64,000 nt of DNA, taken from NCBI GenBank assembly GCA_010093815.1, contig ML996581.1. One strand, written 5' to 3'. Shown here one piece after another: positions 1,092-2,133 of the stretch. The notes beneath the pieces are model-generated. The model was given only the letters and a program-made list of their open reading frames with translations, was not told the origin of the DNA and made no database searches. A program made the position numbers and the translations under genes. Source of the DNA: Pseudovirgaria hyperparasitica. Lineage: Eukaryota. The number at the start of each line of letters is the position of its first letter. The first letter of the stretch is position 1.

Positions 1092-1265
1092 CTAGATGAC
1101 GACACACTTGGATGGTAGGCCACAGGGACCGCCTTTGTCATGCTCTTTGCGCTCTTGCGGGCTAGATCCATTCTCCTGGTTGTTCGTCGCTGCTGGCGTG
1201 GAAGTGGCCCTGTCGTTACCACTGGCTGGTGGTGGTACGGGCTGCTTCTTCTGGCCATCTAGTCA
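1092..1265 (-). other. Putative stop-codon readthrough extension (TGA-CTAG) encoding a 57-residue tail ending in CaaX (CVVI)
   Basis: Stop TGA at 1265-1263 is followed by CTA G. Then 56 in-frame sense codons (LDGQKKQPVPPPASGNDRATSTPAATNNQENGSSPQERKEHDKGGPCGLPSKCVVI) run to TAG at 1094-1092. Confidence 0.8.
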
Positions 1266-2133
1266 CGCGAAGTTAACCTTGGACACAGCCTCGTAGAAGG
1301 CCTTGCCCTGTCTCTCGGCGATCTCGAGCTCCTTGGGAGAAGGCTGGCGCTGGCCCTGAGAGCCCTGTGACGCATCGTCAGTCAATCAACGCACAAAATC
1401 TCTAGTTTCTGCGGAGGGACGAACAGCGAATGTGCCTGCTCCCCATGGAGAGCCTCCATGAAGCTCGCTCACATCACTGAGCAGATCACCAGCCACCTTG
1501 TATCCGAGCGGGACGTAGATGAGACCGTGGTGAGCCAGCGTGCTCATCGCCGCAATGGCGGTGGATTCTTGACCTCCGCCCGGGGTGCCGGAACTGACGA
1601 AGAGACCGGCGTATTTACCCCATAGAGCACCTGTGAGAATGGGATGATGGATCAGCGAATGCTAGATACATTGCCATGGCTCATGATCAGGCGTACCTTG
1701 GCTCCATAGACCGCCTGTCTTGTCCCAGAGGACCTTCCACTGGGCAGGAAAGTTTCCGTATCGTGTGGGGATGCCGAAGAGGAAGGCATCGTATTCTTTC
1801 AGGGTGTTGACGTCGGTGAGGACTGGCACATCGGAGGACTTTGCTGGGGCGTGCATCTTGCCGAGGACCTCGTCGCTGAGGGTCTCTGGGACTCTTCATG
1901 GCAGTTAGCAGTGAGTCGTTCGTGAGCTTATGAGACTCACTGGTAGACCGTTACACTGCCACCAGCAGCCTCAATACCCTTCTTCTCAGCATCAGCTAGC
2001 TGCTTGATGTGCCCATACATGGAATACTGTGACGTGCAATGTTAGCAGGGATCGATCGTAAAGATGAAGAGAATGGTCTGACGCCGCACAGGAACTGAGG
2101 ACGTACGTAGACGATTGCAATCTTGGGAGCCAT
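1263..2133 (-). CDS. PST2: Flavodoxin-like NAD(P)H:quinone oxidoreductase, WrbA/Pst2/Ycp4 (Alt a 7-like) family, 205 aa, 5 exons
   Basis: Exons 2133-2107, 2026-1941, 1893-1697, 1630-1425 and 1364-1263 total 618 nt, with GT..AG introns. Translation: [20 protein letters not shown]...[20 protein letters not shown]...GGGQESTA...[13 protein letters not shown]...[13 protein letters not shown]...[28 protein letters not shown]. These are WrbA-family motifs. Confidence 0.95.

Follow-up and report, generated by a model that had tools for sequence, protein, structure and literature searches.

Why should the gene for a small flavoenzyme be followed, directly behind its stop codon and in the same reading frame, by an open stretch that ends in a lipid-attachment signal? 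The question is raised by a locus of Pseudovirgaria hyperparasitica, a dothideomycete of the order Acrospermales, on the minus strand of a 64,000-nucleotide stretch of contig ML996581.1 (assembly GCA_010093815.1), here called the window, to which all positions refer. The coding sequence of a 205-residue flavodoxin-like quinone reductase (1266..2133) is made up of five exons (2133-2107, 2026-1941, 1893-1697, 1630-1425 and 1364-1266) and ends at a TGA at 1265-1263, the reading being ...TCC AAG GTT AAC TTC GCG TGA CTA GAT GGC CAG AAG AAG... Beyond it the frame continues without a stop for 56 codons (1262-1095), encoding LDGQKKQPVPPPASGNDRATSTPAATNNQENGSSPQERKEHDKGGPCGLPSKCVVI, until it is closed by a TAG at 1094-1092, directly after the residues GGPCGLPSKCVVI; a ribosome reading through the TGA would thus make 262 residues instead of 205. 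The original prediction, which was made from the letters of the window, held that this UGA is leaky and that readthrough appends a tail with a CaaX box (cysteine, two aliphatic residues and a variable residue X). The end of the reading frame, the TGA-CTAG-AT context, the 56 open codons and the CaaX end were all located as described, and comparative evidence from 38 metagenome loci supports the proposal. A conserved, programmed UGA readthrough, which would yield a minor prenylated and palmitoylated isoform besides the soluble form, is the reading to which a probability of roughly 0.8 is given here.

The product of the five exons is identical to a 205-residue database protein, P0002, entered as ‘flavoprotein WrbA [Pseudovirgaria hyperparasitica]’. 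P0002 scored 204.2 bits against TIGR01755 flav_wrbA (cutoff 132.5) and 210.8 bits against NF002999 (cutoff 141), matched Flavodoxin_1, FMN_red and Flavodoxin_2 in Pfam, and shared 70-78% identity with proteins that bear the names Alt a 7, Cla h 7 or Pst2; these matches place it firmly in the family of WrbA / type IV NAD(P)H:quinone oxidoreductases. A search with P0002 gave 4864 proteins at E<=1e-20, and among the 120 matches listed nearly all were 201-208 residues long, many with the C-terminus ...KVNFA.

The presence of the post-stop stretch in mature mRNA could be followed in contigs. Four contig sets from P. hyperparasitica contain the stretch, of which two (X1 and X2) may be the source assembly. 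The other two (X3 and X4) came from another sample and study; they were not recorded as RNA, and were judged to be RNA-derived because they are single contigs without exactly the four introns of the coding sequence (2027-2106, 1894-1940, 1631-1696 and 1365-1424), all of which were confirmed in this way. The 962-nt contig X3 (1079..2293) runs in pieces from 2293 to 1079, spanning the coding sequence, the TGA, the whole extension and the second stop, and X4 reaches 1103. In both the TGA is kept, with 0 other letters at its three positions (1263..1265) and no joint across it. The prevailing mRNA therefore has no splice at the stop, and its transcript takes in the entire extension, which is part of the mature mRNA and is not reached by splicing. 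The expectation that the mRNA would continue past 1092 was therefore borne out by X3, and the caveat that the TGA might be a sequencing error was contradicted, since the same TGA in RNA-derived contigs of a second sample rules out an assembly error. Such contigs drop rare variants and show neither the true 3′ end nor the expression level.

The stop heptamer itself is an uninformative guide. TGACTAG was found nine times in the window against 7.8 expected, and 0/8 of the other copies stood behind a long open reading frame with a meaningful extension; at this chance-level count the heptamer alone is no evidence. What chance does not account for is that the position of the stop, an open frame, a CaaX end and conservation occur together.

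Conservation was followed with an alignment of the enzyme alone (A1), so that the sample was unbiased regarding the tail. Scanned against metagenome contigs, it matched at least 587 stretches, of which 359 were confirmed and the best 80 kept; at each locus the C-terminal exon was walked to its stop and then onward in frame, and the merging of near-identical loci reduced these 80 loci and the window to 73 distinct groups (72 of them metagenomic). An in-frame tail ending in C..CaaX was found behind TGA-CTA in 31 groups, behind TGA-CTG in 7 and behind TGA-TCG in 1, and these readthrough-type loci make up 39/73 groups (38 from metagenomes plus the window). Three groups had TGA-ACG with a tail of the splice type (see below), two (L035, L041) ran off the contig before a tail could appear, and the others were tail-less, ending in TAA (14 groups), in TAG (5) or in TGA in other contexts (10), with short extensions of 2-52 codons that lack the motif. 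The original prediction had asked whether orthologs share the TGA-CTA context and an in-frame CaaX box with codon-preserving changes in length; TGA-CTA(G) or TGA-CTG, the CaaX end and whole-codon length changes are kept in 38 distinct metagenome loci, and a recent private nonsense allele, which it had named as a refutation, is contradicted by the conservation of TGA and tail across lineages.

Many of the 80 loci are contigs of ~1 kb whose coding sequence is intron-less; of the readthrough-type metagenome loci, 27/38 lie on contigs of at most 1.9 kb, most of these 27 with an intron-less coding sequence, from which we infer that these are transcript assemblies. In a FastTree phylogeny, which has few well-supported deep branches and was used for coarse grouping only, the readthrough-type loci grouped weakly with named proteins of the Eurotiomycetes Penicillium, Aspergillus and Thermoascus and with those of the Dothideomycetes Zopfia, Polyplosphaeria, Parastagonospora, Cladosporium and Teratosphaeria; the remaining ones formed a further clade without named members. 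Taxonomy by the best named tblastn hit was set aside, being biased by the tail-bearing queries. Two tail-less loci with a TAG or TAA stop, L008 and L011, were found inside an otherwise readthrough-type clade that groups with Dothideomycetes, and may be tail-less paralogs or secondary losses. At another locus (L015:685-1211) the stop was followed by the expected letters, TGA-CTAGAT, but the extension was only 15 codons long and ran into an unrelated GTPase-like reading frame (...HVDHGKTSL...); it is a probable chimeric transcript assembly and was counted as tail-less.

The 39 readthrough-type loci made it possible to ask whether the post-stop frame behaves as protein-coding sequence. In 2349 extension codons, frame 0 contained 0 stops, against 57 in frame +1 and 134 in frame +2, and frame 0 was fully open after the stop in 39/39 loci, the other two frames in 8/39 and 2/39. 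The extensions measured 44-100 codons, with length changes that were always whole codons, and in composition those of the orthologs favoured G, A, K, E, P, T and Q, with few hydrophobic residues. The ratio of nonsynonymous to synonymous substitution rates (dN/dS) in the linker, with the terminal motif excluded, was 0.11-0.42 in 12/13 computable close pairs, which were drawn from four clades and are partly non-independent; the remaining pair, with few synonymous changes, gave 1.28, and the last 40 codons of the enzyme gave 0-0.23 in close pairs. The open frame 0, the whole-codon changes, the variation at third codon positions (described next) and the low dN/dS together argue that the frame has been maintained as protein-coding. 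By these signatures the post-stop frame is coding sequence contiguous with the enzyme frame and under purifying selection, and the extension is in frame, stop-free and selected at the protein level behind a stop that is TGA in 39/39 loci.

In the window the extension consists of a hydrophilic linker of 44 codons (1131..1262; LDGQKK...KEHDKG), which would be encoded by readthrough, and the terminal motif GPCGLPSKCVVI (1095..1130), which holds an upstream cysteine as a candidate for palmitoylation and the CaaX box CVVI as a candidate for prenylation; the second stop follows at 1092..1094. The extension had no match to any Pfam family. A terminal GPCGLPx[K/N/G]Cxxx was found in 35/39 distinct loci, and its codons for G, P, C, G, P and C had an entropy of zero at the first two positions, where the L codon varied at position 1 only, with near-free variation at position 3 (0.7-2.0 bits, max 1.97). 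A cysteine stood at -4 in 39/39 loci, partly by definition of the set. In the 35 loci that have the canonical motif, the second aliphatic position was occupied by V (18) or I (17), and X was L in 16 of the 39 loci, M in 8, A in 4, S, I and V in 3 each and Q in 2, the window having I. Variant tail ends were observed in L028, L033, L078 and L074/L075, which read ..GKFCGLPKKKCTIM, ..SSDKFCGLNCIVA, ..SSDKFCGVKCVIV and ..DSGSCLPKGCTVI, respectively. These too stand behind TGA-CTA or TGA-CTG and keep two cysteines and a CaaX box, which indicates that the two-cysteine layout is more conserved than GPCGLP.

This pattern bears on the idea that the tail is a decaying remnant of a contiguous Ycp4-like gene, or that the TGA is a recent nonsense allele or sequencing error, the extension being unmade in either case. 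Contiguous tails do exist, since two yeast-type orthologs (L069, L070) join the enzyme directly to a hydrophilic tail ending in ...EKKEDKGLLSCCTVM. A dead remnant would, however, gather stops and frameshifts, whereas the stop and the tail co-occur in 38 other distinct loci with the tail under purifying selection, and the TGA was present in contigs of two samples; the idea is considered highly improbable.

The stop codon and the letters that follow it were conserved as well. The stop was TGA in 39/39 readthrough-type loci, never TAG, and was followed by C at +4 and T at +5 (each in 38/39), A (31) or G (8) at +6, G (24) or C (12) at +7, A at +8 in 37/39, T at +9 in 32/39, and G at +10 and +11 in 38/39 and 33/39, so that the conserved context is TGA-CTR-NAT-GG. 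In the window these eight letters (+4 to +11; 1255..1262) are CTAGATGG. The A at +8 and the GG at +10/+11 were conserved even though the residue of the second codon varies (D, H, Q, N, Y, E), which hints at a leaky context that reaches beyond CUAG. In the literature, UGA CUA (G) figures as a context of weak termination that serves dual targeting in fungi and animals, as far as the available part of the source goes (PMC4207609), and TGA CTA G is what is found at 1265-1259. RNAalifold predicted 0 pairs in 105 nt (12 upstream, the stop and 90 downstream) of 31 sequences, which leaves the short context as the sole conserved cis element seen. Sequence, presence in the mRNA, and conservation and coding signature of the post-stop frame are direct observations.

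The same data speak to another way around the stop, in which a stage-specific adenosine-to-inosine (A-to-I) editing turns it into UGG. Such stop-loss editing is known for many genes of Sordariomycetes and has been documented with C-terminal extensions in Fusarium and Neurospora (PMC13123824, accessible portion), and a minor edited form could escape the contigs. In the same portion of that source, however, fungal editing is said to favour UAG in hairpin loops and the sexual stages of Sordariomycetes (PMC13123824), whereas here the stop is TGA in 39/39 loci and never TAG, no conserved hairpin was found, and the loci group, with weak FastTree support, with Dothideomycetes and Eurotiomycetes. The conserved context is, moreover, the published leaky-termination motif (PMC4207609, in the text available), and editing is judged very unlikely to explain the locus.

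In a third route, a short non-canonical intron containing the TGA would be removed by alternative splicing, which would join the tail to the enzyme and make the in-frame layout incidental. It is suggested by a sister clade of eight distinct loci (L018, L024, L029, L041, L042, L045, L053 and L071) in which a GTGCGT donor overlaps the stop in the form G/GTGCGTAA or G/GTGCGTGA and precedes a CTAA[CT] site that resembles a branch site, and which groups with named Sordariomycetes proteins of Metarhizium, Stachybotrys and Beauveria (FastTree, weak support). When the predicted intron of 63-133 nt is removed, a GPCGLPxKCaaX tail is joined in frame in 6/8 of these loci, one of the remaining two running off its contig and the other having no tail. 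Three of them have the tail motif in frame +1 or +2. In L018 and L053 the coding sequence on the contig is intron-less, yet the last predicted intron is kept, as would be expected if the short form arose by intron retention. In this sister clade, splicing appears to be the way in which the tail is reached.

Public gene models seem at first to tell a similar story. Nine proteins were retrieved, namely the query, seven of more than 208 residues and one of 208 residues, and 3/9 had a C-terminal tail like the post-stop frame of the window: the models of Teratosphaeria destructans, Phyllosticta capitalensis and Penicillium waksmanii, ending in ...SKGPCGLPVKCTVS, ...KSGPCGLPVKCEVM and ...SEGPCGLPKKCTIQ, respectively. 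In the four remaining models of more than 208 residues (226, 247, 214 and 214), the additional sequence is unrelated to the tail. A 90-residue query of the last exon plus tail, searched among longer proteins only, matched the window's own protein alone, and a word search with the tail profile, in which low-complexity words crowded the candidates, gave two proteins, both Penicillium models. Long models (P0042, P0093, P0098, P0122 and P0123) were then aligned with metagenomic relatives read through their stop (A4). Of the three Penicillium models, P0122 and P0123 are missing exactly the VNHQ-stop-LHGS(A/T)ESK of the relatives, P0098 is missing a shorter, overlapping stretch, and in the Phyllosticta model the last residues before the stop are likewise missing. 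To judge from this protein alignment, the stopless long models, which skip the stop-bearing stretch, are probably the work of gene callers that bridge the stop with micro-introns.

Several points count against programmed readthrough as the explanation of the locus. Gene models of five named species fuse the tail to the enzyme without a stop, as does a model from a metagenome-assembled genome of the lichen fungus Variospora aurantia; splicing leads to this tail in a related clade and is therefore available in the family, and three of that clade's GTGCGT loci also have the tail in frame 0; and 24 frame-preserving GT..AG pairs (27-180 nt) span the stop of the window. The RNA origin of X3 and X4 is read solely from the lack of the four introns, and, because contigs drop rare variants, a minor spliced or edited mRNA could have escaped notice. 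The taxonomic placement of the metagenome loci relies on a weakly supported FastTree phylogeny. Readthrough itself, its rate, the lipid modifications and the localisation are what we infer from sequence, the latter two from motif rules and yeast precedent only.

The splicing alternative can be weighed further. None of the 24 GT..AG pairs has a GTRNGT donor and none was used in the RNA-derived contigs, in which no joint crosses the stop; the four real introns of the gene use the donors GTACGT, GTGAGT, GTACGC and GTTCGT; and a GTRNGT donor within -30..+9 of the stop was found in 0/39 readthrough-type loci. Splicing, moreover, requires neither TGA specifically nor the CTAGATGG context, and needs no open in-frame stretch from the codon after the TGA, which 39/39 loci have. 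The original prediction had argued against splicing on the grounds that the nearest GT..AG pair across the stop was only 19 nt and out of frame. This pair proved not to stand alone, so that this part of the argument was too narrow; its conclusion held insofar as no pair has a canonical donor and none is used in the contigs. Splicing is accordingly regarded as unlikely in the window, although of all the alternatives to readthrough it is the least remote.

How widespread the tail is in public data became apparent when a profile built from 35 tails was run against 1.84 billion representative proteins (E<=1e-3). It gave 84 matches (P0124-P0207), of which 82/84 were stand-alone open reading frames of 37-115 residues ending in the motif; the tail is widespread and is catalogued as hypothetical mini-proteins or orphan small open reading frames. 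Such a preponderance of free-standing tails speaks for a stop that regularly severs them from the enzyme, in line with readthrough. Among ten matches retrieved, P0161 and P0204 had a tryptophan at the position of the stop (...KVNFA-W-LDG... and ...KAHA-W-LDG...), which could be a gene call with TGA read as W or a natural TGG variant, and another was the stopless Variospora aurantia model. The suspicion that standard annotation would miss the long isoform was thus well founded, as it is absent from most gene models and, where present, seemingly arises via micro-introns.

That gene callers list the tail as a small open reading frame of its own in 82/84 representative clusters might suggest that it is translated independently; a related thought is that the UGA encodes selenocysteine. 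Against the former, methionine is absent from 38/39 extensions, and the tail invariably shares the reading frame of the enzyme, with no stop from the codon next to the TGA onward. As for the latter, a scan of 600-1400 against Rfam at E<=1 found no match, neither to the selenocysteine insertion sequence (SECIS) nor to any other family, and Dikarya are not known to possess selenocysteine machinery. Either alternative is barely credible.

Under programmed readthrough, the course of events would be as follows. The gene of this abundant enzyme ends in a conserved leaky stop, UGA-CUA-GAU-GG, at which most ribosomes would terminate to give the soluble 205-residue subunit; at low frequency, a minority would insert a near-cognate amino acid at the UGA and continue for 56 more codons, giving a 262-residue subunit whose hydrophilic, disordered linker leads to a terminal GPCGLPSKCVVI. 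The cysteine of the CaaX box would then be prenylated, and palmitoylation would follow on the invariant cysteine that lies six residues upstream, as happens in Ras-type proteins and the yeast Ycp4, so that the tail would anchor the long subunit at the plasma membrane, near its quinone substrate. WrbA-type enzymes are oligomeric, and the long subunit could therefore carry soluble subunits along to the membrane. A few percent of readthrough would be enough to tag a sizeable share of the oligomers. By a rule of thumb, the residue X decides between a geranylgeranyl and a farnesyl group, and its distribution (L in 16, M in 8, others in 15) suggests geranylgeranylation in some lineages and farnesylation in others. 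For comparison, a readthrough of ~4% has been reported for MDH1 in the excerpt available.

The analogy with Ycp4 that was drawn in the original prediction found backing in the literature. In the accessible parts of the sources, Candida albicans Ycp4 has a C-terminal extension with a CAAX box at its end, and the Ycp4 of Saccharomyces cerevisiae appears in a table among the substrates of Erf2, the Ras palmitoyltransferase (PMC5364179), and is called palmitoylated in another source (bioRxiv 10.1101/2023.04.27.538084). The predicted long form shares with the Ycp4 of Saccharomyces and Candida the enzyme fold, a hydrophilic K/E/T/A-rich linker and a terminal Cys-CaaX motif. It differs in that the yeast tail is contiguous with the enzyme in a dedicated paralog, whereas here the conserved TGA stands between the enzyme and the extension with its motif, in what appears to be a single gene of the Pst2/Alt a 7 type; the GPCGLPxKC motif, moreover, was not seen in the yeast-type tail. 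By this analogy the long form would be Ycp4-like in its working, but it is no contiguous Ycp4 gene.

The closest known parallel is the readthrough at UGA-CUA(G) that gives peroxisomal isoforms with a type 1 peroxisomal targeting signal (PTS1) in fungi and animals, including the mammalian LDHB and MDH1 (Stiebler et al. 2014, PMC4207609, as far as available). Both systems use the same stop and 3′ context and a short conserved C-terminal signal behind the stop, so that one gene serves two locations, and in both some lineages reach the same signal by readthrough and others by alternative splicing. Unlike PTS1 readthrough, the signal here is a CaaX box with an upstream cysteine, i.e., a lipid anchor, and belongs to another enzyme family, and the extension is 44-100 codons long with a context conserved to +11 (CTR NAT GG). 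The terms flavodoxin, quinone and prenyl do not occur in the main text of PMC4207609, nor do these or WrbA, Pst2 and Ycp4 in its four supplementary files. For Drosophila Syx17 and Arabidopsis MT1C, predictions place a prenylation signal at the end of the readthrough extension; these are, in the text available, single-gene predictions from profiling surveys that report no conservation throughout a family, unlike the present signal, which is of the same CaaX type and is conserved across dozens of divergent fungal lineages. The A-to-I stop-loss editing of Sordariomycetes (e.g., DBF2) likewise equips one gene of filamentous fungi with a disordered C-terminal tail, but acts, in the portion of the source at hand, on UAG hairpins in the sexual stage to give destabilising tails (PMC13123824), unlike the leaky UGA and conserved terminal motif seen here. 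No publication linking readthrough with Pst2, Ycp4, WrbA or flavodoxin-like proteins was found among open full texts (subscription journals lay outside this scope), in keeping with the remark in the original prediction, made as far as its author was aware, that a readthrough-made CaaX isoform had not been described for this family.

Depending on the lineage, the same kind of tail is supplied through readthrough, through splicing or from a dedicated gene, if the sequences are read as above. A parallel diversity of routes is reportedly known for peroxisomal signals from the work of Freitag et al. in 2012. On balance we lean towards an ancient recoding event that has been kept across much of Pezizomycotina, in which the rate of readthrough would set the fraction of oligomers tethered to the plasma membrane or eisosome, where these would keep ubiquinone reduced. 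The three routes would have been interchangeable in evolution, with readthrough in the loci that group with Dothideomycetes and Eurotiomycetes and in others, intron retention or splicing in Sordariomycetes-like loci, and a paralog, YCP4, in yeast.

If true, the tail would provide the first case in which a lipid membrane anchor, conserved throughout a family, is hidden behind a stop codon, and it would extend dual targeting by readthrough from peroxisomes to the attachment of proteins to membranes. For annotation, the consequence is that the tail appears as orphan small open reading frames in metagenome protein sets, with the long isoform mostly unmodelled. Some members of the enzyme family are named in their source entries after Alt a 7 and Cla h 7, two minor allergens, and these enzymes guard fungal membranes from oxidative damage and promote the virulence of Candida (PMC4556627, in the part available). 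Recoding, alternative splicing and gene duplication would be seen to be interchangeable evolutionary solutions for making one isoform, and there would be, for filamentous fungi, a concrete and testable answer to a point that has been left open in the yeast literature.

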